Source of the DNA: an uncultured Gammaproteobacteria bacterium
Lineage (GTDB): Bacteria > Patescibacteriota > Microgenomatia > Levybacterales > UBA12049
Length of the DNA stretch: 64,000 nt
Assembly (NCBI GenBank): GCA_964490105.1
Contig: CAZAZU010000001.1
Coordinates: 434,361 to 498,360 of the forward strand
Direction of reading: 5' to 3'
The translations under genes and the position numbers were made by a program. Positions 4,660 through 64,000 of the stretch are shown here, piece after piece. The notes under the pieces are model-generated. The model was not told the DNA's origin, searched no databases, and worked only from the letters and a program-made list of their open reading frames with translations. The stretch's first letter is position 1. Each line of letters starts with the position of its first letter.

Positions 4660-5186
4660 AAAACGCTATTTCTTATGTTAATAGAGTCATTTAAAATCTT
4701 CTTAAGATTAAGATTAGTCGGAGTGGAATTTTCCGGATTCCATTCAACCTCTTCAGGCAAATTCTCGCTAAGATGCCCTAAGGTTTCCATATGCTTCCTG
4801 GAAGCTTCTTTCAGTATCAGATCTCTCTCGGAAATATCTTTTCTATTTTTTTCCGCTTTTTCCAATGCGGGATGAATATTTTTAAAATATTCGTCTGACT
4901 TTTTAAGAGCATCTGCGGCGAGTAAATATTGCTTATACTCAAACAGGGTCTTTGCTTCTACTAAGTAATGATCCGCCTCTTTTAAGTTGTAATCAAATTT
5001 ACCAAAATCTCCAAAGTATATATACTTACTTATTCTAGAAATAAATAATCTAGGCTGATATAAAAAGTTACCCGGCATGTAGGAAGGGTAGGGTAATACG
5101 TAGCTTGATTCAGCAAATACAAACTTAGGGAAGGTTAAATTTATTATGAAAACAACAAGAATAGCTAAAAATATGTACTTAACCAT
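4656..5186 (-). CDS. Secreted/periplasmic protein with a signal peptide; possible DUF5667-like family typical of CPR genomes
   Basis: N-terminal signal sequence ending FVFA. The YVLPYPSYMPGNFLY motif is followed by a helical region rich in K, E and A. Confidence 0.45.
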   Translation of the reverse strand: MVKYIFLAILVVFIINLTFPKFVFAESSYVLPYPSYMPGNFLYQPRLFISRISKYIYFGDFGKFDYNLKEADHYLVEAKTLFEYKQYLLAADALKKSDEYFKNIHPALEKAEKNRKDISERDLILKEASRKHMETLGHLSENLPEEVEWNPENSTPTNLNLKKILNDSINIRNSVL

Positions 5187-31986: not shown

Positions 31987-33428
31987 TAATGATAAAGATT
32001 TTTTATATCAGATATTATTTGTTTTCCTGATAATAAATAAATATTAGATATGTAAATTACCCCTCCTGAAATTATAACAAAGAAAAGAGTTAAAAGATTT
32101 TCAATTAATAAATCTGCAAGTATAAATGTACCTAATGCCATAATTATTGCAGCAATCGCGGGTTTGTAAACACTTTTAATAAAATTAAAATCTACTACTT
32201 TTTTAACCAGATAAATCGTAATGAATATTGTTAAAGTAACTACGAATGACGCAATAGCGACTCCATTAAAGCCCCAGAGATAAATAAATAGAGGTGTTAT
32301 GCTCCAGGTCATGAAAGTCCATAAAACCATTAGCTTTAATGTAGTTTTTACTCTGCCAGTTGCATCAAGCACATTTACAAGAACTGAGGACATCGAGGAA
32401 ACTATCGCATTAAGAGAGAAGAAAATAAGACTTAATAACGCTGGCTCCCATTTATTAGCCCACCCTGGAATATACATCATCATGTATGGTGAAACGATAA
32501 TTAGACCAACCAATAAAGGAAATAAGATAAGAGTTGTAAAAAAGAGTGACTTCTCAATTGCAGTTCTTAAAAAAACTTTATTGTCTTGAATTCTTGAGTA
32601 AGAAGAAAATGTAACTTTTGTAACACTATCAACAATATAACGGTAAACGAAAAATGCAATTCTTTGCGCAAATCCAATGTAACCAATTTGAGCGAAAGAT
32701 AAAAACTTAGTCAGGATTACTGTCAAGAAATCATCTTTAATTGTCGCAAGAATATTTTTTGCCTGGAACTGTACTCCAAATTTTAAATTACTAATTGAAG
32801 CTCTGTAAATCCCTACCTTTGGTTTCCATGGTGAAATTAGATAATAAAGAGGAATCCCGACAAGACTAGAAACAAGAAATGCCCATGAGTAACTATCAAC
32901 ACCGAATTTATTTAGAACGAGTGCGATAAGAATAATATTAAAAATTATTGATTCCCCAATCTGAGGAATTACAAGTTTTCCAAAATTAATATTTCTCTCA
33001 AGCAGAATTGAGGGAATCATCTTGAAGGATGAAAGAAAAATGGTAAAGACCAAAACTAATAGAAGTCTTCCGCCCTCATCATTAAGACCGAAGAATGATT
33101 TTATCTGTCCGATGAAGATTAAAAAAACGAGAAATATTCCAAAAGTTACTAAAAACTGAATTGTAAAAACTGTGGCAATATCTTCTTTTTTTAAATCTTC
33201 TTTTTTTTGAATTAATGCAGCTCCTAACCCAAAGTCTGTAATAAAACTTATTACTCGCTGAATTGCAACTACTGCAGTGTATATTCCCAGTTCTCTCGCA
33301 GATAAAATTACAGAGATCGTTAGGAAAGCTACAAAATTAATTAACTGAAGAATAAGGCTTCTACTTGCCAGCGCAAAAATTCCGTGAACGGTTTTCTGAG
33401 AAACTTTTTTTATATCCAGTTTGTCCAT
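31986..33428 (-). CDS. Wzx-like flippase of the MOP/PST family (oligosaccharide-lipid translocase)
   Basis: 480 aa with about 12-14 TM helices; the N-terminal region LILQLINFVAFLTISVILSARELGIY is typical of polysaccharide biosynthesis proteins. Confidence 0.7.
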   Translation of the reverse strand: MDKLDIKKVSQKTVHGIFALASRSLILQLINFVAFLTISVILSARELGIYTAVVAIQRVISFITDFGLGAALIQKKEDLKKEDIATVFTIQFLVTFGIFLVFLIFIGQIKSFFGLNDEGGRLLLVLVFTIFLSSFKMIPSILLERNINFGKLVIPQIGESIIFNIILIALVLNKFGVDSYSWAFLVSSLVGIPLYYLISPWKPKVGIYRASISNLKFGVQFQAKNILATIKDDFLTVILTKFLSFAQIGYIGFAQRIAFFVYRYIVDSVTKVTFSSYSRIQDNKVFLRTAIEKSLFFTTLILFPLLVGLIIVSPYMMMYIPGWANKWEPALLSLIFFSLNAIVSSMSSVLVNVLDATGRVKTTLKLMVLWTFMTWSITPLFIYLWGFNGVAIASFVVTLTIFITIYLVKKVVDFNFIKSVYKPAIAAIIMALGTFILADLLIENLLTLFFVIISGGVIYISNIYLLSGKQIISDIKNLYH

Positions 33429-41030: not shown

Positions 41031-41104
41031 GCCCCGTTCGTCTAGTGGTCTAGGACGCAACCTTCTCAAGGTTGAGATCAGGGGTTCGACTCCCCTACGG
41101 GGTA
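41031..41104 (+). tRNA. tRNA-Glu (anticodon CUC)
   Basis: The cloverleaf folds by hand: acceptor GCCCCGT/ACGGGGT, anticodon stem CAACC/GGTTG, loop TTCTCAA (anticodon CTC), T arm AGGGG-TTCGACT-CCCCT. It closely resembles E. coli tRNA-Glu (GUCCCCUUCGUCUAG...GGGGUUCGAAUCCCCU). No CCA is encoded. Confidence 0.85.
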
Positions 41105-41859
41105 CTAATTAAATTTGATATTGGCTCGAAGTTATCATTACTAAGCTCTTTTTTAATAATTTTCCCTTTAATTTTTCTAACTAAATATGCTTTTCCTCTA
41201 GAATTTATCTTTAGAATTCTAAATACGTTGTCTACTATCTCTATAGCAGCGCGATTATCTACGGCTAGACCAATACCTCCATCGCGACTGATCAAACGAG
41301 AGAAATCTTTTTCCCTCTTTTCAAAATGATAATGTGGACAGAATATAAAATTAAATAAACCAAGTCCTTTTACTTTTATAAATGGCCAGGATTCCCCATT
41401 CTTAGACGTGAACATTCTTGAATCACTATGACCATAAGAGAACCAACATATCGCTCCAGCTGAAAGACCCGACAAGACAATTCCCTGATCAAACGCTTTT
41501 CTTAATGCTTTGTCTACGCCAAGCCTTCTCCAAACTAACATCATCTTAAGTGTGTTCCCTCCTCCGACGTAAATAGCATCCGTGGAAAAAATCTTTTCTT
41601 CAATCTCTTTTTTCGGCGACTTATTATCTAAAATTAAAACATCAGTCTTGCAATTTAGATTTTGAAACCACTCTTCAAATGCTTTTATGTATCTTTTGGA
41701 ATTTTTACTCGCAGTAGGAATGAATAGAATTTTAGGATTCTTTTTACCAGTTAAGCGAATTATTTCATTATCTATTCCAGTAATTTCAATCTCTGGACCA
41801 TATTTTTCAAAGTCTCCTTTTTCTATATCTTCTCCGCCAATTGCCACAATTTTTCCCAT
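41095..41859 (-). CDS. Peptidase S51 family (peptidase E/cyanophycinase-like, class I glutamine amidotransferase-like fold)
   Basis: AIYVGGGNT...LSGLSAGAICW matches the PepE GGNTF / GxSAG nucleophile elbow. The last 10 nt overlap the 3' end of tRNA-Glu on the opposite strand. Confidence 0.62.
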   Translation of the reverse strand: MGKIVAIGGEDIEKGDFEKYGPEIEITGIDNEIIRLTGKKNPKILFIPTASKNSKRYIKAFEEWFQNLNCKTDVLILDNKSPKKEIEEKIFSTDAIYVGGGNTLKMMLVWRRLGVDKALRKAFDQGIVLSGLSAGAICWFSYGHSDSRMFTSKNGESWPFIKVKGLGLFNFIFCPHYHFEKREKDFSRLISRDGGIGLAVDNRAAIEIVDNVFRILKINSRGKAYLVRKIKGKIIKKELSNDNFEPISNLISTP

Positions 41860-50051: not shown

Positions 50052-50606
50052 TCACTTTAATTTTTCTAGTATTGCATTTGCGAGTTCTGGAAATTCAAAC
50101 TTGGGGCGAGTTGCACCAAAATGCTCTTGGTCTTTAAATTCAGTATATTCTGAATCTAATTTTTCATGTACAAATCTAGCCTCTTCCACTGGCACAAAAG
50201 GATCATCTACGGAGCCAAACTGAAGAATCCAATTTTGATTTTTCTTTATCGCTTCCCAGTCCCACGGCCTATTAAAATATCCAGCCTTAGTTTCCCAGGG
50301 ATTATTTAAATCAGTGTGATAAGTAGCGACAAGTGCACTACCGTAAATTTTATTTTTTTCTGCAAATCTCATTGCAGCAATTGCACCACTTGAATATCCT
50401 ACAAGAATCGTATTTTCGTCAGCATTTAATTTATGAAGAAATGGAATCCAGGAACTTTCCGGAGCTAAATCACTATCAGGAAAGTCTTCGTCAATTACTT
50501 GGACTCCAACACTTTCGAGTTCTTTTTTAAGATAAGGAAACCATCCGTCCTTAGGTGATCCGCCACCATTTCCTGGAATAAATATAGCTTTTAAATTTTT
50601 ATTCAT
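50052..50606 (-). CDS. Small alpha/beta-fold serine hydrolase (YdeN/RBBP9-like)
   Basis: GYSSGA nucleophile elbow; about 185 aa. The start is moved to the internal MNKNLKAIF so that it does not overlap the upstream paralogue. Confidence 0.55.
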   Translation of the reverse strand: MNKNLKAIFIPGNGGGSPKDGWFPYLKKELESVGVQVIDEDFPDSDLAPESSWIPFLHKLNADENTILVGYSSGAIAAMRFAEKNKIYGSALVATYHTDLNNPWETKAGYFNRPWDWEAIKKNQNWILQFGSVDDPFVPVEEARFVHEKLDSEYTEFKDQEHFGATRPKFEFPELANAILEKLK

Positions 50607-51162
50607 TTTCTTTAATTTTTTCAAATAACTCTGGGAACCTCCTGTACTTCTCACCTGATGTAGAAATACTAAAATGCTTCTGTCCTGGAATTATAACAAG
50701 TTCTCCGTTAACTTTTTCACTCAAATATCTTGCATGATCAAGCGGACAAAATGGATCATCATCAGAATGAATGAATATAAACTTTCGAGCTTTATTTTTT
50801 ATTTTTTCGAAATCAAAAGGTTCTAAGAAAAGTTCTTCTAAGTCTTCTCTCCCCAAACTATCTTTAAAAGATCCAACTAAATAAACTGGCCCAGTCTTAA
50901 CTCCATCGGGCAAACTTTGGAGTAATCCAAAAATCTCTACAGATCCAGATGAATGTCCTATTATAATAGTGTCAGGTCCAAACTTGAAATCACTAGCTAG
51001 TAAAAATTCTGTATATCGCTTAACATTTGGCACATCTGCGCCCGGAAGATCAGGAACCCAAACATTGTATCCTATTTTTTCCAGTTCTTCTTTTATCCAC
51101 GGAAACCAATTTTTATTTGAATTTGAGCCAGTCCCATGAAGTATCAACGCATTTTTATTCAT
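50599..51162 (-). CDS. Small alpha/beta-fold serine hydrolase (paralogue of 50052-50606)
   Basis: GHSSGS nucleophile elbow and the same N-terminal block (NALILHGTGSNS.KNWFPW vs LKAIFIPGNGGGSPKDGWFPY). Confidence 0.55.
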   Translation of the reverse strand: MNKNALILHGTGSNSNKNWFPWIKEELEKIGYNVWVPDLPGADVPNVKRYTEFLLASDFKFGPDTIIIGHSSGSVEIFGLLQSLPDGVKTGPVYLVGSFKDSLGREDLEELFLEPFDFEKIKNKARKFIFIHSDDDPFCPLDHARYLSEKVNGELVIIPGQKHFSISTSGEKYRRFPELFEKIKENE

Positions 51163-51778
51163 CTACCTCAACGATTCTATACCAGTCGTCTTTTACTTCT
51201 ATGTATTGGTGATTTGTAAGTAGAATAATTTTATTTTCTTCGTTATATGTATGATGCACTCTATGTTTTAAATATCTTTCTTTAAATAGTTCATGTCCCC
51301 AGTGTGGGAAAACTACAAAATCGACTAAATTTAAACCTGCAAAATCTACTAAATTCGGAGCTTTTTTATAGTTATCTAAATCCCGAAGTGGTTCTATGTT
51401 CGGTCCAGCTAATACAGAACCAGCACTAGATCCTATGTAAATTTTTCCATTTTTTATGTAATCAATAATTACATCCCTGCATTCAGATTGCTGGATCTTT
51501 TCGAGCAAATAAAACGTGTTTCCGCCTGAAAAATAAATTATGTCAAAATCTTTTAGGAAGTTTTTTACTTCTTCTTTGTTTTGACCAGTAATTGTGTATT
51601 CTGTTACATCAAACCCAGCATCAATTAAAGACTGCTTATCATCTTCTTTCCATTTAAGATCCCCTTCTTCCACTTCAGCAGCTGTTGAAATAAAAACCAA
51701 CTTAGCGCCTTTTTTGTCAATTTTCTTAGCTACATCGTGAGCTACTTTTTGAACCGAAGAAGTTAAATACAAACTCAT
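51155..51778 (-). CDS. Peptidase S51 (peptidase E-like dipeptidase)
   Basis: IIYFSGGNTFYLL...IYIGSSAGSVLAGP aligns with E. coli PepE GGGNTF...YIGWSAGAN. An 8-nt overlap with the downstream hydrolase suggests coupling. Confidence 0.65.
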   Translation of the reverse strand: MSLYLTSSVQKVAHDVAKKIDKKGAKLVFISTAAEVEEGDLKWKEDDKQSLIDAGFDVTEYTITGQNKEEVKNFLKDFDIIYFSGGNTFYLLEKIQQSECRDVIIDYIKNGKIYIGSSAGSVLAGPNIEPLRDLDNYKKAPNLVDFAGLNLVDFVVFPHWGHELFKERYLKHRVHHTYNEENKIILLTNHQYIEVKDDWYRIVEVDE

Positions 51779-55131: not shown

Positions 55132-55491
55132 ATGGCAAAAAAAATACTAGTAGTCGATGATGAGGAAAGCATACTTGATGCTGTAAAATTAATTCTCGAA
55201 GATGAGGGATTTTTGGTAAAAGCAATTTTTAAAGGTGATGAAGTATATAAGGAAGTAGAAAAATTTAATCCAGATTTAATTCTTTTAGACGTTTTAATGT
55301 CTGGAAAAGATGGAAGAACTATTTCCAAAAATTTAAAAAGCATTGAAAAAACAAAAAACATTCCTGTTATTATGATCTCTGCACACCCAACTGCAAGTGA
55401 AACATTAAAGGAATATAAAGCTGACGATTTTTTAGCAAAGCCTTTTAAGGTGGACGAATTACTGGAAATCTTAGAGAAGTACCTAAACTAA
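55132..55491 (+). CDS. Stand-alone response-regulator receiver domain (CheY-like)
   Basis: KILVVDDEES...DLILLDVLMSGKDG...KP; 119 aa with no output domain. Confidence 0.9.
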   Translation: MAKKILVVDDEESILDAVKLILEDEGFLVKAIFKGDEVYKEVEKFNPDLILLDVLMSGKDGRTISKNLKSIEKTKNIPVIMISAHPTASETLKEYKADDFLAKPFKVDELLEILEKYLN

Positions 55492-56442
55492 ATGTGCTCC
55501 GTTTGCCGGATAATTAATAATCGTTTTAATAACCTCTGGTAATTCTTTTAATTTTTCAGATATCTTTTCTGCGTCCTCGCTTCTGCAAATTACATGAACA
55601 TCCTGACCCGTGTTAATAGTAAAATAACATTCTAATCCTTCTCGGCGGAGACTCTGAACATATTTCATAACAGCTACAGTTCCTGGTGTCCAATAAAATA
55701 ACGGCGGATTAGATGTAAATAAAATTGAGTGAAATTCCAAAGCTTCTCTTTCTATAATATCTCCAAATTCAGAAAAGTTTTTTTCTTCAATTAATTTTTT
55801 TACTTTATTTATTTTTTCAGGAATTCCCTCTAATCTTTTTTCAAAAAATATTCCAGATCTGGCGGATTTTTGTCCTTCACTTGTCGCTAAGAATTTTTTC
55901 TCTGTACTTACTACTGCTATAACATCTGCTATCTGAAAATAATCAGCTGGAAAAACAGACTGCGCATATGACTCTTCGCTTGTGTTTCCATCCCTCCACT
56001 CTACAAATCCGTCTGGAATTGAACGGCATGCAGATCCTGACCCCTGACGAGCTAGAATCGATAGATCTTTCTTGCTTAATTTCAAACCTGCAGCAGAGAC
56101 TCCCGCTAAAGTTAATGCTGCAAATCCAGAGGCAGAAGAAGAAAGACCAGTTCCAGTTGGAAAATTATTTTCTGTAATAATTTTTACTTTTTTATGGATA
56201 TTTGCCAGTTTTCGAATTCTGTCAATATGCTTTATCGCTCTATTATTTTCTAATTCTTCAATTTTCCCGTTAAAACTCACATGATCGTTTTCAAAATCTC
56301 CAAATTCTACAGTAGTTGTAGTTAAAAGTGTTGAAAGATTCATGGAAATACTTCCATTCTCAGGAAGCCTTAAGACCTCATCTTTTCTCCCCCAATATTT
56401 TACAAATGCTATGTTCGATGGTGCTTGTGCAGTTACTTTCAT
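55483..56442 (-). CDS. mvaD: Diphosphomevalonate decarboxylase (GHMP family)
   Basis: APSNIAFVKYWGRKDEVLRLPENGSISMNLS is the MVD signature, with a GHMP ATP-binding loop GLSSSASGFAALT. Confidence 0.85.
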   Translation of the reverse strand: MKVTAQAPSNIAFVKYWGRKDEVLRLPENGSISMNLSTLLTTTTVEFGDFENDHVSFNGKIEELENNRAIKHIDRIRKLANIHKKVKIITENNFPTGTGLSSSASGFAALTLAGVSAAGLKLSKKDLSILARQGSGSACRSIPDGFVEWRDGNTSEESYAQSVFPADYFQIADVIAVVSTEKKFLATSEGQKSARSGIFFEKRLEGIPEKINKVKKLIEEKNFSEFGDIIEREALEFHSILFTSNPPLFYWTPGTVAVMKYVQSLRREGLECYFTINTGQDVHVICRSEDAEKISEKLKELPEVIKTIINYPANGAHLV

Positions 56443-57290
56443 ATCAATTCAAATTTTTTGAATATACTAATTATACCATCTTCATTTACGTGGCCTCCGA
56501 TAAAATGCCTTTTCTCGTTTTTATCTAGTTTAGATTTTAATTCCTCTGTTCCATTTCCCATTACTCCTTTATATCCGCAAATTTCTATGAAATCCCAATC
56601 ATGAATCGTATCTCCCACTCCTAATACTTCGTCAAGATCTACATTAAGGTATTTTGCTAAATATTTAACGCCATGTTTCTTGGATGCATTTTTTGAAGTT
56701 ACTACAGCAGTTTTAACGTCGCCTGTGTTTGGTCCACTTGACCAAGAAAAATTAAACAAATCTTTTATTCCTTCTAAAACTGCATTAATTTTTTCTTTAT
56801 CACTATTATTAAATGCTGAAATATTTATTTTTGAAATTTCTTTTTTTTCTATTAATTGCGAAAAATCATTTATCAAAATTGGTCTTCTGCCTATAAAATT
56901 TTCATATTTTTTTGTATATTCATTTTCTGCTGATTTTAATAGGTAATAGTCTTCTGTAGTGAAAATATTTACGTAAACATCTTTTCCTAATAAGTTTAAT
57001 AACTTAATTAGATGTTCAGGCTTTATGATTTCTTTTTTTATTATTTTATTTTGGATCGGATTAAATATTACAGCTCCTCCATCCGCAATGTGAGGATTAT
57101 CGATCCCGATATTTGCAATATTTTCCTTCGCTGCGAAAGTAGTTTTGCCAGTTAAAAAGCTAACACGAATTCCGCTTTCATGAATCTTTTTCAAAGCTTT
57201 AGAAACTTTTTTACTGGGTTGGGGAAAATTAATTCCGGGGAGATTTCCAATTATTACACCGTCTATATCAAGAACTATTGCTTTTATCAT
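56439..57290 (-). CDS. HAD-IIB (Cof-type) phosphatase embedded in the mevalonate operon
   Basis: Motif I VLDIDGV, motif II FLTGK, motif IV GVGDTIHD, plus a Cof-type cap insertion. Confidence 0.65.
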   Translation of the reverse strand: MIKAIVLDIDGVIIGNLPGINFPQPSKKVSKALKKIHESGIRVSFLTGKTTFAAKENIANIGIDNPHIADGGAVIFNPIQNKIIKKEIIKPEHLIKLLNLLGKDVYVNIFTTEDYYLLKSAENEYTKKYENFIGRRPILINDFSQLIEKKEISKINISAFNNSDKEKINAVLEGIKDLFNFSWSSGPNTGDVKTAVVTSKNASKKHGVKYLAKYLNVDLDEVLGVGDTIHDWDFIEICGYKGVMGNGTEELKSKLDKNEKRHFIGGHVNEDGIISIFKKFELI

Positions 57291-58257
57291 CTTCCACTCT
57301 TACTCCTTCTGCATTTGTTTTAACTTTAAGAATTTCTCCGCCTGCTTCTGTTATTCCTTTTTCAATACTATCCAAACTATCCTCTGGCCCAAATGAAATC
57401 ATACAATCTCCTCCGCCTGCTCCTGATAATTTTCCTCCATATGCTCCGCCATTTACTGCGCCCTGTATCATCGCATCTAATTTATCAATACTTACTCCAA
57501 GCTCTACTAAAAGTTTTTGATTATCTAGCATTAGTTTTCCTGCAGTTTCCCAATCGCTACCTATAACAGCGGGTTTTGCTTTTTCAACGAGTGTGTCAAT
57601 TTCGTTATAGATTTCATCAAGTCTAGTTTTATTATCTGCGAATTTTTCCTTAACTTGATTTATGAGAGTTACAGTATCTGCTTTAACACCTGTATAGCCA
57701 ACTATTAACGGCAGAGAATCAATATTTAGAGGCTCAATAGTTTTTCCGCCTGTTACAAAATAAAGAGTTCCGCCATAGGTCGCAGCAGCTACATCAAATC
57801 CCGAACCTTTTCCTTGAATATCCAAAACTGCTTTAAATGCTAAGTCAAAAACTGCTTTGTTATCTAAATTTAATTCAAATAGTTCTGGAAGTGCTTTTAC
57901 AGCACAAACTGTGGAAGCAGAAGAAGATCCGAATCCAAATTTAGATGAAAATTCTGAAGAAGTTGTAATTCGTAAACCTTTATTCAAGCCAAACTTATCA
58001 TAAAGATTTTTAACTGCGATCTCTACAAATTTTGCACCTTTTGGAATATCCCCCTGTCCTAATTCTGAAATAGACTTTTTATAACCCGTAACATCTACGT
58101 CAGATGCTTCTAATTCAAAGTTTGGCTCATCAAGTAATTCGGCAGTCAAACGAATTCTCTGGTCAACTGCAGTAACCAAACATGGATGATCATACACTAC
58201 AGCGTGTTCTCCAAAAAGCATTAATTTCCCCGGCGCCGAAACAGTTACTTTATTCAT
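57268..58257 (-). CDS. GHMP kinase, mevalonate kinase-like (mevalonate or phosphomevalonate kinase)
   Basis: SAPGKLMLFGEHAVVY, GFGSSSAS, GSGFDVAAATYGG and KLSGAGGGDCMI are the MVK-family motifs. Confidence 0.75.
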   Translation of the reverse strand: MNKVTVSAPGKLMLFGEHAVVYDHPCLVTAVDQRIRLTAELLDEPNFELEASDVDVTGYKKSISELGQGDIPKGAKFVEIAVKNLYDKFGLNKGLRITTSSEFSSKFGFGSSSASTVCAVKALPELFELNLDNKAVFDLAFKAVLDIQGKGSGFDVAAATYGGTLYFVTGGKTIEPLNIDSLPLIVGYTGVKADTVTLINQVKEKFADNKTRLDEIYNEIDTLVEKAKPAVIGSDWETAGKLMLDNQKLLVELGVSIDKLDAMIQGAVNGGAYGGKLSGAGGGDCMISFGPEDSLDSIEKGITEAGGEILKVKTNAEGVRVEDDKSNSS

Positions 58258-58260
58258 ATA

Positions 58261-59133
58261 TTAAAATTGTACTACAACTGCAGATGGGGCAAGAGCTCTA
58301 ATTCTTGGTTCAACTGGTCTTAATGGTTTTTCTGCTCTTATGACCAACACAGGGAAGTCAATTCCAACTGGTCCATCTTGATTTCCTCTTATATTAAATC
58401 TTTGCCTAAAATACTCAGGTTGTCTTGCTAATAAATGATCCATAGCTTTTCGTCCGCCTGGCTGTTTAAACTGTCCGCCATTCTCCCAGTCCTGCGTAGA
58501 AACCTGACTAACATAGTCTTTAATACTAGAAACCCTAAAACCCGCATTATTTAGCAAACTTACCCATTGATCTTCAGTTGGTATATTACATCTTCCTCTT
58601 TCGTCTAAATCTCTTCCCCCTAGGACTTGTTTTGCGCTATGCTGTGCGTTTGTTCTAGCTTTCATTCCATCAGGTGAAACCATATCCGCTACTACCAAAA
58701 CTCCACCAGGTTTTAAAACATCATTAATTCCTGCGAGAACATTAGGCTGTTGATCTTGAGGAATGTCCTTAAGGCCATATCTAACAACAGCAACATCTGC
58801 AAGTGGAACTCCAGACAAATCCCTAACATCAGCTTGAATTCTTTCAATTCCTTCAGGAACTTTTCCTAAGCTTACAGCACTAGCCTCAACTGCTACAAAT
58901 CTATGCCCTGGTGAACGATCCATTAAACCCTTTCCTACCTTTCCAGGCCCTGACATTAGATCTAAAACTACAGCTTCTCCTTGGATATCGCCTAAACCAG
59001 TTGCTCTGTGGATCATATCCAAAAAACCTTGATCTGTATATGTTTTGGGTCCTTTATCCCAGTCTCTTTTTGCGTATATTTCTGGCATATCTGGTGCCGG
59101 CACTTGGCCTGGCCTAGCATCTGGTGCTGTCAT
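58261..59133 (-). CDS. Class I SAM-dependent methyltransferase
   Basis: Motif I VLDLMSGPGKVG, acidic post-I FVAVEAS, motif III LKPGGVLVVAD. Its composition is rich in Pro, Arg, Gly and Ala, unlike the neighbouring proteins. Confidence 0.7.
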   Translation of the reverse strand: MTAPDARPGQVPAPDMPEIYAKRDWDKGPKTYTDQGFLDMIHRATGLGDIQGEAVVLDLMSGPGKVGKGLMDRSPGHRFVAVEASAVSLGKVPEGIERIQADVRDLSGVPLADVAVVRYGLKDIPQDQQPNVLAGINDVLKPGGVLVVADMVSPDGMKARTNAQHSAKQVLGGRDLDERGRCNIPTEDQWVSLLNNAGFRVSSIKDYVSQVSTQDWENGGQFKQPGGRKAMDHLLARQPEYFRQRFNIRGNQDGPVGIDFPVLVIRAEKPLRPVEPRIRALAPSAVVVQF

Positions 59134-60197
59134 ATTTTTTCCTCTCTTAATCCTTCAACTCCCAGGGTCAGTTGGGTAGGGGTTAACTTTCGTGATTTTA
59201 GCACTTCTTTTAGTTTTTTCAAGTCCGTGTGATAAATAAGAATTATTCCCGTGGATTTCGTAGTTCCTCCTGCTCCGCAAATCTTAGCAGCTCCGCCTGA
59301 TTCCTCAATATCTCTAATTATTTTCTTAACATAATTAGAAACTACTCCAATTTTTTCCAGATTTGCTTCTCCCCTTTTAATAATTCCTGGAATTTGTCGC
59401 GGAATATTTTTTTCAATCGCCAGACGAAGGTCTTTTACTAACTCTTCCTGTCTATCAAAAATTTCTTTTGTTAAAAGTTCGTTCTCTTCAACTAACTTTC
59501 TGACAAGACTCACCATTTCTCCAGTCGATTCAGTTGGAGTACCGGTATTAATTATGTAAAAGTTTTTTGTAATATCTTCTGACATTTTCATGTCCATTGG
59601 TTTTACACCGTCATCTTTTTTAAACCAGACTAGTCCTCCATATGCTGATGTTGAATTGTCTCCGCCTGACGGCTTACCATGTTTTTTTCTCTCACATAAA
59701 AATGCAATTTCATTAATTGTTTTTTTATCCAATTTTTTACCAGTAAACAAACTTAATGCGCCGATGATTGAAACAGATAATGCACCAGAGGATCCCATAC
59801 CTGCTCCCACTGGAACTTCAGAATCAATTAAAAGATCAAATCCAGATATTGAATTCAAACCGTAATGTTTTATGAATTGACCGACGATTATAAATGGATA
59901 ATCTAAAGGATCTTTTGTTATTGATTTTAAAAGAGGGATATCATTTTCTTTATCATACTTATCCCAATTTTCCTGAGCTTTATGAAATTTTTTAACAACT
60001 TTATCAAGAGAAAGCATTTCGTCTTTATCAAAATTTTTTGAAGAAACTTTTATGTTCTTATCTTTACGGGGAGTGATAGTAACAAAACATCTTTTACTGA
60101 CAGCGGTTAAAATTGCAGGTTTATTATATACAATTGCATGCTCTCCTAATAAATGTAATTTGCCAGGAGCTGATACAAAAACTGTTTTTAGTTTCAT
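59130..60197 (-). CDS. GHMP kinase, mevalonate kinase-like (second copy; mevalonate or phosphomevalonate kinase)
   Basis: SAPGKLHLLGEHAIVY, GAGMGSSGA, KPSGGDNSTSAYGG and KICGAGGTTKSTG. Confidence 0.75.
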   Translation of the reverse strand: MKLKTVFVSAPGKLHLLGEHAIVYNKPAILTAVSKRCFVTITPRKDKNIKVSSKNFDKDEMLSLDKVVKKFHKAQENWDKYDKENDIPLLKSITKDPLDYPFIIVGQFIKHYGLNSISGFDLLIDSEVPVGAGMGSSGALSVSIIGALSLFTGKKLDKKTINEIAFLCERKKHGKPSGGDNSTSAYGGLVWFKKDDGVKPMDMKMSEDITKNFYIINTGTPTESTGEMVSLVRKLVEENELLTKEIFDRQEELVKDLRLAIEKNIPRQIPGIIKRGEANLEKIGVVSNYVKKIIRDIEESGGAAKICGAGGTTKSTGIILIYHTDLKKLKEVLKSRKLTPTQLTLGVEGLREEKI

Positions 60198-60219
60198 AAT
60201 AATTTTTGCTGATTATACA

Positions 60220-60522
60220 CTAAACTGGTTTAAATTTTATGTGATATGCAATAACCCCTTCAGTATCTCCTGTAAATGAACGACGCAGAACAGCAGCCAC
60301 TTTCTGCCCTTTTTTAAGATCTTCTTCTTCCCAATCTACAAGCTGACCTATCATTCTTTCTTTATTTTCATATTCGATAATAACAACTGGATACGGCGCT
60401 TCATGATGAAAAGCGCGGGGTGGAACTCTAACTATTGTCCAATTTAAAATCTTGCCAACTCTGCCAATATGGCTTGCAACATTTTTTTGTCTTCTCCAAA
60501 GTTTTACTGGTGTTGTAATCAT
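60220..60522 (-). CDS. DUF35 OB-fold domain protein (thiolase/HMG-CoA synthase partner), lacking the Zn ribbon
   Basis: 100 aa; APYPVVIIEYENKERMIGQLVDWEEEDLKKGQKVAAV matches the DUF35 OB-fold pattern. No Cys residues. Overlaps the thiolase stop by 4 nt. Confidence 0.55.
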   Translation of the reverse strand: MITTPVKLWRRQKNVASHIGRVGKILNWTIVRVPPRAFHHEAPYPVVIIEYENKERMIGQLVDWEEEDLKKGQKVAAVLRRSFTGDTEGVIAYHIKFKPV

Positions 60523-61658
60523 ATTTGAATAATGTGAACTGCCGCAACAGCTCCCGATCCTCCTACATTATGAGTTAGTCCTATCTTTGCGCCTTTCACT
60601 TGTCTTTCCCCTGCTTCCCCTCTAAGCTGAGTTGTAATTTCTACAATCTGTTTTATTCCAGTTGCTCCAACTGGATGACCGCACGCTTTAAGTCCCCCAG
60701 AAGGATTTGTAACAATTTTTCCCTTACCTATGGTCATCTTTCCACTCTCAATGTCTCGTGCTCCTTCTCCTCTTTTTGAAAATCCTAAATCCTCGACCGC
60801 TATGGCTTCAGCAATTGAAAAACAATCATGAATTTCTGCAACATCAATGTCTTCGGGTTTTAAGCCAGTTTTTTTATACGCTCTAACTGTAGCACCCACA
60901 ACTGACCCCAGACTTACGAAAGATTTTCTTGAGTGAAGCGCCAGGGTATCAGTACCAACTTCACTAGCTGATATATAAACATTTTTACTTTTTGAAGATT
61001 TACTGCTAATCACCACAGCAGATGCTCCATCTGAAATCGGCGAACAATCAAGAAGCTTTAACGGATCTGCAATTCTTCCGCTTTTCATAACATCCTCAAC
61101 TGTAATTTGTTTTCTAAACTGAGCTTTATCGTTTAGAAATCCATGAAAGTGATTTTTTACTGAAATAGAAGCCAATGTCTCTTCTGTCACATTATATTTG
61201 TCCATATAATCTTGCGCCATTAATGCGTAAATTCCTGGAAATGTAGCTCCCGCCATCCTTTCATTGTCAGACCCAGCTGCCATAAGTCCTGTTGTTACAT
61301 CGTCTTGTGAAGAGTCAGTCATTTTTTCTATTCCTAACACTAAAACTGTTTCATATTGGCCTGCCAAAATACTGTTCACGCCGGAATTCAAAGCCAAACC
61401 GCCGGATGCACATGCGCCTTCCACTCTAATTGCCGGAACTAATAATCCTAATTCTTCAGCGAAAAAGGCTCCCAAATTTGCCTGGTTTCCTAAAATTCCG
61501 GCAAGCATATTTCCCACATATAGAGCATCTATATCTTTAGCTTTTAACTTGGCATCTTTAAGTGTGCCTTCAATCGCTTGCCTTGCTAATGCGCGCGGCG
61601 ATTTATTCCATAATTCACCAAATTCAGTTGTAGCAACTCCTAAAATATTTACTTTCAT
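60519..61658 (-). CDS. Acetyl-CoA C-acetyltransferase (archaeal-type thiolase)
   Basis: Active-site Cys in IRVEGACASGGLAL; C-terminal His/Cys blocks (GHPVGATG, NVGGSGA); 379 aa. Confidence 0.85.
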   Translation of the reverse strand: MKVNILGVATTEFGELWNKSPRALARQAIEGTLKDAKLKAKDIDALYVGNMLAGILGNQANLGAFFAEELGLLVPAIRVEGACASGGLALNSGVNSILAGQYETVLVLGIEKMTDSSQDDVTTGLMAAGSDNERMAGATFPGIYALMAQDYMDKYNVTEETLASISVKNHFHGFLNDKAQFRKQITVEDVMKSGRIADPLKLLDCSPISDGASAVVISSKSSKSKNVYISASEVGTDTLALHSRKSFVSLGSVVGATVRAYKKTGLKPEDIDVAEIHDCFSIAEAIAVEDLGFSKRGEGARDIESGKMTIGKGKIVTNPSGGLKACGHPVGATGIKQIVEITTQLRGEAGERQVKGAKIGLTHNVGGSGAVAAVHIIQI

Positions 61659-62692
61659 AATGTATGCATTTGTTTTAGATATTGCGGATAACTTATATAT
61701 TTCTTGTCTTCAATTTGTGATGCAACAGAAATAATATTTTTTTGTTTCTTTAAAATATTTTTTGTTGTTTTAAAAATAAATCCATCTGATCCGGCGCCAG
61801 AACCGTAACTGACGAAAAATATTTTTTGACCAGGTTTTGCGATATCAAGTACTGCAGCGAGTCCAGTTAAAGATGACGCTGAATATGGATTTCCAATCCG
61901 GTCAACTATTAATGATGGCTCAAGCTGTTCTTTTGTGAAACCTAATTTTTTTGCAGCTACTCTAGGAAATTTTCCATTTGGCATGTGGAAAACACAGTAA
62001 TTAAAATCTTCTACTTTTAATTTTGTTTTTGTAAGTAACTTTTTTGCTTCATTTATTACATGCATAAAATATGCCGGCTCTCCGGTAAATCTCCCAAAGT
62101 GTGATGGATATCGCATTCCATCTCTTCTCCAAAAATCTGGAGTATCTGATGTGAATGACGAAGTTTCTAAAATATCTGCAATTATTTCTTCTTTTTTAGA
62201 ACCAAGTATATATGCAGCACCAGCTGAAGCCGCTGTATACTCAAGTGCATCATGAGGTTTTCCCTGGGCCGTATCAGATCCAATTGCTAGTCCGTACTCT
62301 GCTTGCTTACTTTCAATTAAAGAATTCGCTACCTGCATTCCGGCTGTTGCAGCTTTACATGCAAATTCTAAATCAGCTGCCATATAATCCGGTCCTATTT
62401 GAAGATACTCTGCAGCAATTGATGATGAGGGATTAACTGCGTAGGGATGGCTTTCAGATCCGAAATAAACACATCCTATTTTTTTAGGATTTACTCCTAA
62501 CATCTGAAGTGCTCGTTTTCCCGCCTCAATTCCTATGGTAATTGCGTCTTCATCAATTGCAGGAACTGATTTTTCATTTACCTTCAAGCCGTTTTTTATT
62601 TCTTCTTCGTCTTTTTTCCAAACCTCTGCAATATCAGATAATTTTATCCTGTATCTTGGAATATAGACTCCGTATCCTACAATTCCAGCCAT
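61655..62692 (-). CDS. mvaS: Hydroxymethylglutaryl-CoA synthase (archaeal/type-2-like)
   Basis: MAGIVGYGVYIPRYRIKLSDIA at the N terminus, and the catalytic Cys in DLEFACKAATAGM. The start is set at the internal Met so that it does not overlap the HMGR stop. Confidence 0.85.
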   Translation of the reverse strand: MAGIVGYGVYIPRYRIKLSDIAEVWKKDEEEIKNGLKVNEKSVPAIDEDAITIGIEAGKRALQMLGVNPKKIGCVYFGSESHPYAVNPSSSIAAEYLQIGPDYMAADLEFACKAATAGMQVANSLIESKQAEYGLAIGSDTAQGKPHDALEYTAASAGAAYILGSKKEEIIADILETSSFTSDTPDFWRRDGMRYPSHFGRFTGEPAYFMHVINEAKKLLTKTKLKVEDFNYCVFHMPNGKFPRVAAKKLGFTKEQLEPSLIVDRIGNPYSASSLTGLAAVLDIAKPGQKIFFVSYGSGAGSDGFIFKTTKNILKKQKNIISVASQIEDKKYISYPQYLKQMHTL

Positions 62693-62693
62693 A

Positions 62694-63848
62694 TTATTTT
62701 CCTCCTCTTCCCAGCTTACTGTGTGCTTTTGCCAAAGTTCCTTGCTCAAGCGAAGATAACAAGGATAACTCTCCAGCTAAAACTGCCGCCCCAATTATTT
62801 CAGAGAATTTGAGAGCGTTTTTGCCTTCATTTGGCCCAGCAACTCCCAAAATAGATAACGCTTCTTTCTGAGTCCCAAGCCCTGTCCCTCCCCCTACGGT
62901 TCCCACCATTAAAGAAGGCAAATGAACACTAATATACAAATCTTTTCCCTTAATAACTTCCGCAGTTGTCATAGTCAAACTCCCCTCGACAACGTGAGCA
63001 GGATCTTGACCTGTTGCGATAAATATAGCAGCTATAACATTGGCAACATGTGCATTAAATCCCATTGATCCGGACATTGCTCCACCTATCATACATTTAG
63101 CAAGCCAAACTTCATATATTTCACTTGCGCTTGTTTTAAGAATCTCTTTAAGAACTTTTTCAGGAATTATAACTTCTGCCTTTACTGCTTTTCCTCTTTT
63201 ATTAATTACGTTCTGCCACGCTGGCTTTTTATCTACACAAAAATTTCCAGATAAAGAAATACATTTAACTGATGAGTGTTTTTCAATATAGTCAACAATC
63301 GCGTTTGTTGCAATCGTGATCATATTTAATCCCATCGCGTCCTGAGTATCAAAATAAAAACGAACGTATATAAACCTGCCTGTTTCTGAAAATTCGTACT
63401 TAAGAAGTTTTAAATGTGAAGAAGTGGATTCTGCGGTTTTTTTTATATTTAAAAAGTTTTTATTTAATAGATTTAATAATTCATTTCTTTGCTCTATGTT
63501 TTCAGCTTTAAAAACCGGTCCTCGCGTAGCCCCAATATTTTCTGCTTCAACTTTTGCTCCTCCTGAAAGAGTTATCGCTTTAGCCCCTCTATTAACTGAC
63601 GCGACTAATGCTCCTTCAGTTGTAGCTAGTGGAATATAAAAATCTCCTTCAAATGAAGATCCGTTAATTTTTAAAGGCCCTGCCAAGCCCAAAGGCACTT
63701 GCGCAACTCCAATCATGTTCTCGCAATTTCTAGTTGATGCCACACTTTCATCCAGAGAAAAATTACCAATATTCATTAGATCAACCTTCATTTTTTTCTC
63801 AACTTCTTCTCTCCGACACTTAACTGAACTAAAATCTCTTAGGTTCAT
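62694..63848 (-). CDS. mvaA: HMG-CoA reductase, class I-type catalytic domain
   Basis: ENMIGVAQVPLGLAGPLKINGSSFEGDFYIPLATTEGALVASVNRG matches the class I ENxIG...VP.G.AGPL...PMATTEGCLVAS signature; 384 aa with no N-terminal membrane domain. Confidence 0.9.
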   Translation of the reverse strand: MNLRDFSSVKCRREEVEKKMKVDLMNIGNFSLDESVASTRNCENMIGVAQVPLGLAGPLKINGSSFEGDFYIPLATTEGALVASVNRGAKAITLSGGAKVEAENIGATRGPVFKAENIEQRNELLNLLNKNFLNIKKTAESTSSHLKLLKYEFSETGRFIYVRFYFDTQDAMGLNMITIATNAIVDYIEKHSSVKCISLSGNFCVDKKPAWQNVINKRGKAVKAEVIIPEKVLKEILKTSASEIYEVWLAKCMIGGAMSGSMGFNAHVANVIAAIFIATGQDPAHVVEGSLTMTTAEVIKGKDLYISVHLPSLMVGTVGGGTGLGTQKEALSILGVAGPNEGKNALKFSEIIGAAVLAGELSLLSSLEQGTLAKAHSKLGRGGK

Positions 63849-64000
63849 AAATAAAAATGGGCGCTATAAGCCCTCATTATTATAGTCGTAAATATTTTCA
63901 AAATCATTCGAAGCAAAATAATTCACTCCAAGTACAAAAAAATGTATAATATGACTGTGAGAGGCCTGATAGACGAAGTTTTAAAAGGAAATCCAGAGGC

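Follow-up and report, generated by a model that had tools for sequence, protein, structure and literature searches.

A mevalonate gene set and its clustering in the candidate phyla radiation (CPR, Patescibacteria) have been described by Hoshino and Gaucher (2018; PMC6107057), who term the CPR route a 'potential' pathway. Class II HMG-CoA reductase is wholly missing from CPR, the CPR enzymes form clades of their own that are congruent with the CPR species tree, and homologues of isopentenyl phosphate kinase (IPK), with no assigned role, occur in Microgenomates (PMC6107057). The cluster reported there for Microgenomates and Peregrinibacteria, and noted in Peribacteria (PMC4736985), comprises an archaeal-type AACT, HMGS, HMGR-I, MVK, a second GHMP kinase ('PMVK') and DPMD, which is the same set as in the locus described here; clustering and host lineage are also the same. 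The initial annotation presented this locus as a bacterial operon of unusual, archaeal-like character, but its host is a Microgenomates-like member of CPR/Patescibacteria, where this operon type is already on record, and since the gene set was published by Hoshino and Gaucher (2018) that headline claim is known biology. The sole unexplained parts of the operon are an embedded methyltransferase and an embedded phosphatase, both recurrent in relatives. Neither PMC6107057 nor PMC4736985 mentions DUF35, the methyltransferase, phosphohydrolases or the ECF sigma gene noted below, and the word 'methyltransferase' occurs zero times in either paper.

The window analysed is a stretch of 64,000 nucleotides in which nine ORFs stand in tight array on the minus strand at 55483-63848, all at the coordinates first proposed; the gene content, strand and family assignments given at that stage hold in profile searches. 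From the first gene of the operon to the last, followed by the divergent neighbour, the features are:

62694-63848, minus strand: class I (NADPH-type) HMG-CoA reductase (HMGR), the operon's first gene
61655-62692, minus strand: archaeal-type HMG-CoA synthase (HMGCS), 345 aa (NF003274, TIGR00748)
60519-61658, minus strand: archaeal-type acetoacetyl-CoA thiolase (NF004720, NF053570)
60220-60522, minus strand: mini-DUF35 OB-fold scaffold protein, 100 aa (PF01796)
59130-60197, minus strand: GHMP kinase A, a mevalonate-kinase paralogue (TIGR00549)
58261-59133, minus strand: class I SAM-dependent methyltransferase, accessory slot 1 (weak class I SAM methyltransferase matches)
57268-58257, minus strand: GHMP kinase B, mevalonate kinase (NF003036, TIGR00549)
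56439-57290, minus strand: HAD-IIB (Cof-type) phosphatase, accessory slot 2 (PF08282)
55483-56442, minus strand: mevalonate 5-diphosphate (or 5-phosphate) decarboxylase, last gene (TIGR01240)
63942-64000, plus strand: 5′ end of a divergent ECF sigma factor gene that leaves the window (match to the gene in related locus L001)

Every junction is tight, although the initial annotation, with 4-nt overlaps 'between most genes', was slightly generous: such overlaps are found at four of the eight junctions, whereas three others are gaps of 1, 22 and 3 nt and one is an overlap of 23 nt. Promoter-like and terminator-like sites in the operon show no excess over shuffled sequence. The first 19 codons of the sigma gene match the window at 63942-63998 (the full gene in L001 matches PF04542 and PF08281), and by gene calls or Pfam a divergent sigma gene lies immediately upstream of HMGR in L001-L004 and L097.

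The same operon was found in metagenome-assembled genomes of Levybacteria, Gottesmanbacteria and other Patescibacteria. Across a comparison set of about 95 related loci, the core order HMGR-HMGCS-thiolase-DUF35-kinase A-kinase B-decarboxylase is fixed, being held in about 90, and two junctions of the core take extra genes. The typical CPR operon runs on into IDI-1 and UPP synthase (e.g., L097 and L004), and IDI-1 genes at related loci carry a Levybacteria label. The connection with cis-prenyl synthase and IDI-1 reported for the CPR cluster (PMC6107057) can also be seen in related loci. Window ORFs of at least 150 aa include no IPK (AA_kinase), no IDI of the NUDIX or FMN type, no trans-prenyl synthase and no UPP synthase, in agreement with the earlier statement that IPK and IDI lie outside it; IDI and UPP synthase could not be placed in the rest of the genome either.

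The upper half of the pathway is archaeal in type, as originally claimed. HMGR matches PF00368 at 415 bits and scores 438 bits with the class I model TIGR00533 against 59 bits with the class II model TIGR00532, which bears out its assignment to class I; its top solved structure is 6HR7 (374 bits), followed by eukaryotic class I enzymes. It is an outlier within the operon, with at most 68% identity to the HMGR of any relative, whereas adjoining genes reach 92-94%. HMGCS starts at an ATG at 62692, 1 nt past the HMGR stop and preceded by a GGAGG Shine-Dalgarno sequence, for which a longer TTG ORF was rejected. The enzyme scores 506 and 471 bits with the archaeal models NF003274 and TIGR00748 against 130 bits with the bacterial TIGR01835, and keeps the catalytic Glu (GSESHPYA), Cys (EFACKA), His (VFHMPNG) and Asn (IGNPYS) contexts. 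The thiolase scores 468 bits with NF004720 and 441 bits with the Methanothermococcus-type model NF053570 and contains the Cys (EGACASG), HDCF and GHP motifs, the motif list and the catalytic residues of the archaeal complex being taken from PMC12960953. For HMGCS, thiolase and DUF35 alike, the best matches are subunits of the Methanothermococcus thermolithotrophicus complex (6ESQ, 6ET9; Voegeli et al., 2018, via PMC12960953), at 408 bits (6ESQ chain I), 310 bits (6ESQ chain A) and 37 bits, respectively.

As in that complex, the three genes are adjacent, and their products retain the catalytic residues as well as the HDxF motif that belongs to the fused CoA site. To this extent the locus mirrors the archaeal channeling complex, as was proposed, but a full DUF35 scaffold is not part of the likeness. 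The archaeal DUF35 has 130 aa with a zinc ribbon, whereas the 100-aa protein encoded here has zero cysteines and no rubredoxin-like zinc ribbon: PF01796 covers residues 19-80, the OB fold only, the alignment to 6ESQ_E is confined to residues 48-128 of the archaeal protein, and, unlike in the archaeal scaffold, a short N-terminal segment (PVKLWRRQK) runs straight into the OB fold. The zinc-less form is CPR-wide, with 0-1 Cys in the 46 orthologous DUF35 matches examined from related loci (which include two duplicate contigs and two matches cut by contig ends) and a length of 98-111 aa where complete. Because the zinc ribbon is missing, the protein is an incomplete copy of the archaeal scaffold, and since it lacks one of the scaffold's two domains, formation of a complex by thiolase, HMGCS and mini-DUF35 is predicted from sequence but is not guaranteed.

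The lower half combines two GHMP kinases with a GHMP decarboxylase, the gene set of bacteria and eukaryotes, and an archaeal route was rejected for it; IPK would therefore be dispensable if the decarboxylase takes the diphosphate. Both kinases exceed the cut-off of 163 bits for the mevalonate kinase (MVK) model TIGR00549 (kinase A 179.5 bits, kinase B 196.5 bits), and neither scores as a phosphomevalonate kinase (PMK). Kinase B matches NF003036 at 208 bits and the Methanosarcina MVK 6MDE at 127 bits, with typical PGKLMLFGEHAVVY, GSGFD and GAGGGDCM motifs. Kinase A carries MVK-like SAPGKLHLLGEHAIVY and PSGGDNSTSAYGG motifs and matches solved MVKs at 65 bits; PMK models reach 78 and 47 bits only, the former being the Gram-positive model with a cut-off of 166. 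Its orthologues diverge fast (31-50% identity among CPR). By elimination, kinase A is the probable PMK. The decarboxylase scores 263 bits with TIGR01240 (cut-off 171) and is probably specific for the diphosphate.

The favored reading, in which we place good confidence, is that of a housekeeping CPR mevalonate operon using the classical order of steps, with the methyltransferase and HAD phosphatase as accessory genes. Gene identities, conserved order, host lineage and the retention of catalytic residues (checked in HMGCS, thiolase and HAD) are direct observations. Thiolase and HMGCS, on the zinc-less mini-DUF35, would convert three acetyl-CoA to HMG-CoA, which the class I reductase would reduce to mevalonate; kinase B would then yield mevalonate 5-phosphate, kinase A, as a diverged MVK paralogue, would most likely attach the second phosphate, and the decarboxylase would generate IPP. 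This IPP would go into polyprenyl phosphate carriers, needed both for the cell wall and by the very large polyprenyl-phosphate-dependent glycosyltransferase set of the window, whose 1-41 kb part encodes at least nine GT-C-type transferases, 10 GT2 transferases and one flippase.

The methyltransferase gene begins in a 4-nt overlap with the end of the kinase A gene and is translationally coupled to it. The family is rare, with 36 homologues in a search of 5.8 bn proteins and, in an exhaustive search of 1.84 bn representatives, 63 at E ≤ 1e-30 and about 31 core clusters. It is under purifying selection (28 invariant columns in 33 sequences), and the AF2 model (pLDDT 89) has as its nearest structures 1VL5 and 1XXL, both of no assigned function. 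Slot 2 holds a phosphatase scoring 115 bits with PF08282 and 96 bits, under the cut-off, with TIGR00099; its DxD (DIDG), T47 and GDxxxD (GDTIHD) motifs are intact and its nearest structures are uncharacterised HADs. The HAD gene is present in some relatives only, with orthologues in the same slot in L007, L010, L012, L015 and L021. Literature incorporating either enzyme into a mevalonate pathway was not found, consistent with their initial description as lying outside described variants. Two operon junctions across CPR repeatedly take in enzymes that modify small molecules, and the most likely targets of the methyltransferase and HAD would be phosphorylated C5/C6 compounds that the pathway passes through or produces. 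Judged by position and recurrence, the methyltransferase may have an anionic pathway metabolite as its substrate, and the HAD may serve as a valve that relieves or regulates IPP/DMAPP or mevalonate phosphates. Plants have an IP/IPP cycle in which Nudix hydrolases remove phosphate from IPP/DMAPP and IPK restores it, and bacterial IPP-hydrolysing HAD and Nudix enzymes serve in isopentenol production. The likeness to the plant cycle, a phosphohydrolase beside IPP-making enzymes, would be one of analogy only.

That the two junctions simply tolerate insertions, the methyltransferase and HAD being passengers unrelated to isoprenoid synthesis, is a possibility of some weight, though clearly the less likely one. 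About 80% of sampled CPR operons lack these genes, and most have no insert at all: kinase A lies immediately beside kinase B, with slot 1 empty, in 53 of 68 metagenome loci, and slot 2 holds no insert in 64 of 82. Slots are also occupied by proteins lacking a recognisable domain (L022, L060, L033, L075) and one EEP-family protein, a Micrarchaeota homologue of the methyltransferase lies away from mevalonate genes, and close relatives swap slot content, the L012 methyltransferase being 41% identical where its neighbour genes reach 83-92%, while L021 has a second, unrelated methyltransferase and L022 a protein of unknown type in its place. However, bacterial members of the family were found only within these operons, adjoining kinase A in 20 of 20 bacterial loci with visible context and still touching it in L089, where the gene has moved to the opposite side. 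The same slot is used by two unrelated methyltransferase families, gene overlaps imply co-translation, and slot 2 accommodates four unrelated phosphohydrolase folds across lineages (HAD-IIB, HAD-IB, HD and Nudix), a pattern that chance would hardly produce, given that every flanking enzyme works on phosphate-ester substrates. Far less credible is a recent horizontal transfer of the operon from archaea into an otherwise ordinary bacterium, the implicit reading of the initial annotation, which could appeal to the archaeal models and crystal structure that the upper enzymes match best and to an operon GC content (0.37) slightly exceeding the 0.29-0.34 seen over much of the window. The operon is matched in GC content by the 42-50 kb stretch (0.35-0.38), its lower half is non-archaeal in type and the zinc-less DUF35 is shared throughout CPR. 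This origin is already contradicted by the CPR-wide operon, since dozens of CPR loci share its order and ECF-sigma-like neighbour (such sequence is present in the flanking DNA retrieved for 33 related loci) with gradually declining identities, and by the separate CPR clades congruent with the species tree (PMC6107057).

A rather improbable alternative concerns the last steps, with the decarboxylase acting as a phosphomevalonate decarboxylase (PMD) on the mevalonate 5-phosphate made by kinase B; the resulting isopentenyl phosphate would be phosphorylated by kinase A as a GHMP-type IPK, or by an IPK encoded elsewhere, and the embedded phosphohydrolases, recurrent in the operon, would tune the IP/IPP balance. 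The specificity positions of the decarboxylase are mixed. Arg25 corresponds to the PMD-specific Arg83 (Dellas et al., 2013, Table 4; PMC3857490), at a position reported to clash with the second phosphate, residue 191 is Gln and not the Met of diphosphomevalonate decarboxylases (DMDs), kinase A scores as MVK and not PMK, and Microgenomates have IPK homologues (PMC6107057). The top solved structure is the Anaerolinea thermophila PMD (6N0X/6N0Z; 290 bits, 45% identity; 6N0X identified from PMC9254496), against 195 bits and 36-37% identity for Firmicutes DMDs. Yet the TIGR01240 score is over the cut-off, whereas the 184 bits obtained with the PMD model NF040704 fall far short of the 475 set for it, and position 19 is Arg, resembling the Lys of DMDs; of 70 CPR orthologues, 68 have one of these two residues there. 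Unlike the wild type, 6N0Z has Lys at the equivalent of position 19 and Met at the other; we take this variant to be the PMD-to-DMD engineering mutant of Thomas et al. (2019). The second kinase, present in every operon, is simply explained by the classical order, and neither the window nor the annotated flanks of L002, L004 and L097 contain an IPK. We thus infer the order of the last steps, as kinase A does not score as PMK and the decarboxylase has its nearest relative in a Chloroflexi PMD. Least credible of all would be repurposing of the HMGCS/thiolase/DUF35 trio as an acyltransferase like PhlABC or MucABC; bacterial trio homologues with that function exist (PMC12960953) and PhlA (5M3K, 9SKH) is among the structural relatives at 179-205 bits, but the archaeal complex scores twice PhlA and the trio is accompanied by HMGR and the remaining pathway genes. 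The HMGCS Glu/Cys/His/Asn contexts and thiolase HDxF, which those acyltransferases have lost (PMC12960953), are all present here and already contradict such a role.

The housekeeping operon favored here differs from the CPR cluster of PMC6107057 in that IDI-1 and UPP synthase are not adjacent and a methyltransferase and HAD phosphatase are embedded. The methyltransferase has the class I SAM-dependent fold in common with prenyl-diphosphate C-methyltransferases acting on GPP, IPP/DMAPP or FPP (PMC9401056, PMC7862628), and, given its genomic tie to the supply of isoprenoid precursors, it could conceivably play a similar role; none of these enzymes is among its PDB sequence matches at E ≤ 0.01 or its top 50 fold matches. 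From the Chloroflexi/haloarchaeal route of MVK, PMD and IPK (Dellas et al., 2013, PMC3857490; 6N0X) the locus is set apart by its second GHMP kinase and by the lack of an IPK in the window, although its decarboxylase is most like the A. thermophila enzyme and has an Arg equivalent to Arg83 of R. castenholzii; in the present enzyme, the position of DMD Lys21 is Arg, not Asn or Leu, and the His of the A. thermophila PMD is Gln. Firmicutes-type operons, with class II HMGR, thiolase II and mvaK1-mvaD-mvaK2, differ from this locus, which has a class I reductase, an archaeal-type thiolase and synthase with a DUF35 beside them, and a kinase A that fails the Gram-positive PMK model, but its lower half shares their three-enzyme logic.

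On the minus strand between positions 55483 and 63848, nine head-to-tail ORFs were called in the window, and the existence of an operon with the mevalonate-pathway gene families proposed in the initial annotation is borne out by the ORF calls, Pfam and NCBIfam. That annotation had 4-nt overlaps between most genes; such overlaps are found at only four of the eight junctions, and the other four consist of gaps of 1, 3 and 22 nt and an overlap of 23 nt. Translation of HMGCS was placed at ATG 62692, which is preceded by GGAGG and lies 1 base past the HMGR stop codon; a start at a longer TTG ORF was rejected. Within the operon, a scan of the cluster detected no excess of promoter-like or terminator-like sites over shuffled sequence. 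In order of transcription the genes are:

62694-63848, minus: HMG-CoA reductase (HMGR)
start at 62692, minus: HMG-CoA synthase (HMGCS)
next in order, minus: thiolase
60220-60522, minus: DUF35 protein
59130-60197, minus: GHMP kinase (kinase A)
58261-59133, minus: methyltransferase
57268-58257, minus: GHMP kinase (kinase B)
56439-57290, minus: HAD-IIB phosphatase
55483-56442, minus: decarboxylase

The archaeal character of these genes had been considered odd for a bacterium. The cluster is instead a standard mevalonate operon of the CPR, and its recent transfer from archaea was rejected as a reading. The host belongs to the CPR/Patescibacteria by the lineage of its operon-bearing relatives (Patescibacteria group; Microgenomates group). 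Among species-representative genomes the same operon is present in Candidatus Levybacteria, Levyibacteriota, Gottesmanbacteria and Patescibacteria, one methyltransferase homologue is named 'Patescibacteria group bacterium', and IDI-1 proteins from related loci are labelled Levybacteria. The window carries bacterial markers (Lon, endonuclease III, a two-component system and a bacterial topoisomerase IB) and no rRNA or ribosomal protein genes; its GC content is 29-38%, and its ORFs are uninterrupted under the standard genetic code. The MAGs nearest to the window (L006, L007, L008, L012, L013 and L015; TPA assemblies) are titled 'uncultured Gammaproteobacteria bacterium', which is probably a mislabel, because their gene content is plainly that of CPR.

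CPR mevalonate genes have been described as clustered and syntenic with a cis-prenyl diphosphate synthase, HMGR-II is wholly missing from the CPR, and some members have IPK (isopentenyl phosphate kinase) homologues of unknown role (Hoshino and Gaucher, 2018; PMC6107057). A 'near-complete' mevalonate pathway has been reported from Peribacteria genomes (PMC4736985), and the pathway is also present in freshwater Gracilibacteria (PMC9166423). Since these gene sets are already published, the operon as such is known biology, and its archaeal-type upper half has already been invoked in debates on early isoprenoid evolution. None of the three papers mentions a methyltransferase, the word DUF35 is absent from PMC6107057, and a literature search for native mevalonate operons that contain a phosphatase or methyltransferase gene returned nothing relevant, in keeping with the initial view that the methyltransferase and HAD genes lie outside described pathway variants. 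Within the searchable literature, five features considered below are new: the layout of the accessory slots, a methyltransferase confined to the operon, phosphohydrolases recruited convergently, a DUF35 without its zinc ribbon and the weak basis of two late-pathway assignments. Overall, the initial observation is confirmed and its interpretation partly supported.

In the upper half of the operon, HMGR scores 438 bits with the class I model TIGR00533, 3.5 bits below its strict cut-off, vs 59 bits with the class II model TIGR00532, and its solved relatives are all class I, which upholds the original class I assignment. HMGCS scores 506 and 471 bits with archaeal models vs 130 bits with the bacterial model, and thiolase 468 bits with a 'thiolase domain' model and 441 bits with a Methanothermococcus-type model. 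The best solved relative of HMGCS, thiolase and DUF35 is the M. thermolithotrophicus complex 6ESQ/6ET9 (408, 310 and 37 bits, respectively). Complexes that form HMG-CoA are set apart from repurposed bacterial acyltransferases by Glu-Cys-His-Asn in HMGS and by Cys, GHx and HDxF in thiolase (PMC12960953). Alignment to 6ESQ_I shows the Glu-Cys-His-Asn catalytic set intact in HMGCS, and alignment to 6ESQ_A shows EGACASG, GHP and HDCF, the last being the HDxF of the shared CoA site, intact in thiolase. As all of the diagnostic residues are kept, a Phl/Muc-type acyltransferase trio was rejected on catalytic motifs.

The DUF35 protein (60220-60522) consists of 100 aa comprising an OB fold only, has no Cys and aligns with the archaeal protein solely over residues 48-128 of the latter, and hence lacks the rubredoxin-like zinc ribbon. 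All 46 orthologous hits extracted, which include two duplicate contigs and two hits cut by contig ends, contain 0-1 Cys, and complete ones are 98-111 aa long; the missing ribbon is a trait of the whole lineage rather than an assembly artefact. In the operons (the window and L021-L098) a conserved N-terminal P-V-K-x-W-R-x-Q-K is joined straight onto the OB fold. The proposed resemblance of the trio to the archaeal complex thus holds for the catalytic motifs and the best structural match, but not for the zinc ribbon of DUF35.

The operon was compared across 15 genome loci collected with a methyltransferase profile and 80 metagenome loci collected with a mevalonate-kinase profile, the window proteins being mapped by tblastn. 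In about 90 related loci the core order HMGR-HMGCS-thiolase-DUF35-kinase A-kinase B-decarboxylase is constant, and additional genes are found at the junction between kinase A and kinase B (slot 1) and that between kinase B and the decarboxylase (slot 2). In the kinase-selected set, whose selection does not favour the methyltransferase, the two kinase genes are direct neighbours in 53 of 68 loci, and slot 1 is occupied in the remaining 15.

Genes occupying the two slots in related loci (L numbers)
Slot 1: methyltransferase of the window family; L023, L044, L051, L054, L090
Slot 1: unrelated 359-aa methyltransferase plus HD protein; L021
Slot 1: HD-domain proteins of ~350 aa; L047/L048, L082, L086, and L054 next to the methyltransferase
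Slot 1: EEP-family protein; L076
Slot 1: proteins without recognisable domain
Slot 2: HAD-IIB orthologues of the window gene; L007, L010, L012, L015, L021
Slot 2: HAD-IB; L011, L036
Slot 2: HD proteins of ~260 aa; five loci (L055, L060, L071, L077, L083)
Slot 2: IDI-like Nudix of ~164-176 aa; L010, L064 (7975-8472), L068 (2235-2729), L076 (8052-8582)

At least one embedded phosphohydrolase is present in about one-fifth of the kinase-selected operons and a methyltransferase in about one-tenth, and four phosphohydrolase folds (HAD-IIB, HAD-IB, HD and Nudix) have been recruited to the same place. The slot 2 Nudix proteins are missing the catalytic Cys of IDI, and a near-canonical Nudix box is kept in L064; they are candidates for IPP/DMAPP hydrolysis, not isomerisation. 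Two separate HD families (~350 and ~260 aa) recur in CPR mevalonate operons. The larger (L021 5907-7001, L047 5970-6998, L054 3382-4452, L082 1284-2342, L086 5869-6951) has a conserved C-terminal W-x-P-...-W-x-x-G-M and often no Pfam match.

Within the clade of the window, slot content varies between loci whose neighbouring genes remain alike: slot 1 holds a different methyltransferase in L021 and an unknown protein in L022. Comparison by hhalign gave the L021 methyltransferase and the 250-aa L022 slot protein probabilities of 14% and 0.1%, respectively, as diverged family members, and both were rejected as distant members of the methyltransferase family. In L012 the neighbouring genes are 83-92% identical to those of the window and the methyltransferase 41%. 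The HMGCS and thiolase of the window have their nearest counterparts in L007/L012 (92-94%), kinase A has its own in L012 (89%), and the methyltransferase and kinase B have theirs in L006 (90% and 97%); for HMGR no relative exceeds 68% identity. Because the nearest relative and the degree of identity differ gene by gene, the operon is a recombination mosaic, in which the accessory genes behave like exchangeable cassettes.

The slot 1 methyltransferase is rare. Its homologues form 36 clusters in 5.8 billion proteins, and an exhaustive profile search of 1.84 billion representatives returned 63 at E<=1e-30, ~31 of them above 220 bits. It adjoins kinase A in all 20 bacterial loci with visible context (in L089, on the other side of kinase A); a Micrarchaeota homologue, 34% identical, has no mevalonate genes nearby. 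Across the family alignment 28 columns are invariant; they include a motif I of unusual sequence (D-L-M-S-G-P-G) and a number of basic residues (R118, K122, H165, K168 and R174), which would be compatible with an anionic substrate. Searches with NCBIfam, Pfam and profile-vs-PDB comparison, and Foldseek matching of a confident AF2 model (pLDDT 89), went no further than class I small-molecule methyltransferases of a generic kind; structurally, two structural-genomics proteins of unknown function come closest, ahead of generic methyltransferases acting on small molecules.

Both GHMP kinases score above the NCBIfam mevalonate-kinase cut-off. Kinase B (NF003036, 208 bits; Methanosarcina mevalonate kinase (MVK), 127 bits) is confidently predicted to be an MVK. 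Kinase A has MVK-like N-terminal and catalytic-Asp motifs as in mevalonate kinases and falls below every NCBIfam phosphomevalonate kinase (PMK) model cut-off, so that we infer its putative role as PMK by elimination. The decarboxylase exceeds the cut-off of TIGR01240 (diphosphomevalonate decarboxylase, DMD). Its nearest solved structure is the phosphomevalonate decarboxylase (PMD) of Anaerolinea thermophila (290 bits, 45% identity; 6N0X, PMC9254496), vs 195 bits and 36-37% identity for Firmicutes DMDs. Specificity positions were taken from Dellas et al. (2013), together with two sites at which the PDB sequence of the A. thermophila variant departs from the wild type. At the positions of DMD Lys21, Ile/Asn27, Ser139, Ser141, Ser192 and the loop Met, the window protein has Arg, Arg, Ser, Ser, Thr and Gln.

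Decarboxylase residues at three specificity positions
Lys21 (S. epidermidis): DMD Lys; PMD Leu or Asn; window Arg19
Ile27: DMD Ile or Asn; PMD Arg; window Arg25
Met near the loop: DMD Met; PMD His (AthPMD); window Gln191

Among 70 CPR decarboxylase orthologues the first of these positions is K/R, the second is mostly R and the third follows Q>M>H. No correlation was found between the signature residues and kinase A, the methyltransferase or HAD. The simplest reading is the classical order (MVK, PMK, DMD), since two kinases are retained in all operons. An alternative order, in which MVK is followed by PMD and then by a kinase that would phosphorylate isopentenyl phosphate, may also be compatible with the sequence; the L097 locus, with a PMD-like signature, has no IPK nearby and has IDI-1 and UPP synthase there instead. 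A further departure from the textbook would have lineage-variable additions, with the methyltransferase acting on a phosphorylated pathway metabolite and a phosphohydrolase step taken up separately from HAD, HD and Nudix folds, and maybe the succession of MVK, a PMD-like enzyme and a GHMP-type kinase; we regard such a late CPR pathway as rather unlikely. Methylation of a C5 precursor, if true, would be of interest for non-canonical terpenoids. The sequence evidence leaves the PMK and DMD of the CPR operon, which define the 'bacterial/eukaryotic' lower route, not securely identified, and evolutionary scenarios (PMC6107057, PMC9254496) depend on these two assignments.

In many relatives the operon runs on into IDI-1 and UPP synthase (UPPS), with an adjacent UPPS in 41 loci and an IDI-like NUDIX in ~36. 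Neither IDI-1 nor UPP synthase lies within the 64-kb window, and no protein assigned to its genome was found among the 120 listed of 7,746 matches to a CPR IDI-1 profile. The reported lack of IPK and IDI stands for those ORFs of the window that are 150 aa or longer, searched with Pfam and NCBIfam, among which no aconitase-type dehydratase, UbiD-type decarboxylase or IPK was matched. In the clade of the window a convergent topoisomerase IB lies downstream in place of IDI-1/UPPS; in the window, histidine kinase and response regulator genes come before it. This pair, common to L007 only among relatives, converges on the operon, the 3′ end of the response regulator overlapping that of the decarboxylase by 9 nt. 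At the other end, 93 nt separate HMGR from a divergent ECF sigma factor gene. In 33 related CPR loci the flanks contain ECF-sigma-like sequence, and L001-L004 and L097 were confirmed to have a sigma gene in divergent orientation immediately upstream of HMGR. This placement suggests envelope-stress control of isoprenoid supply. Features surrounding the operon are:

63942-64000, plus: 5′ end of the ECF sigma factor gene, running off the window (continues in L001, 696-1244)
55132-55491, plus: response regulator, receiver domain only, 119 aa
53664-55127, plus: PAS histidine kinase
31986-33428: Wzx-type flippase
5179-6153: NAD-dependent epimerase

The last two belong to a very large envelope-glycan island (1-41000), which also encodes at least nine GT-C-type membrane glycosyltransferases (PMT_2, YfhO and PTPS_related; mostly 500-750 aa, many in tandem), ten GT2 enzymes and a GT4; several 450-640-aa ORFs in the same glycosyltransferase arrays had no Pfam match. 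The island enzymes all rely on polyprenyl phosphate carriers, and therefore provide an obvious purpose for the operon. Between the island and the operon are Peptidase_S51 paralogues (41095-41859 and 51155-51778) and adjacent Ser_hydrolase-family paralogues (50052-50654 and 50599-51162) that overlap by 56 nt. A tRNA-Glu(CTC) at 41031-41105 (+) is the sole Rfam or ARAGORN match in the 64 kb.

The operon differs from the archaeal mevalonate pathway proper, which employs phosphomevalonate dehydratase, anhydromevalonate phosphate decarboxylase and IPK, none of which was matched among window ORFs of 150 aa or more. Its methyltransferase shows no detectable relation to the solved prenyl-diphosphate methyltransferases (GPPMT/IPPMT type), which are absent from both its profile-vs-PDB matches (E<=0.01) and its top 50 Foldseek matches. 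A zinc ribbon is present in both archaeal and Phl/Muc DUF35 proteins, whereas the CPR operon DUF35 is without one. Compared with the CPR cluster of Hoshino and Gaucher (2018), synteny with IDI-1 and cis-prenyl synthase is not seen in the 64-kb window, while archaeal-type AACT and HMGS, HMGR-I, MVK, a second GHMP kinase and a DPMD homologue form a shared, clustered set.
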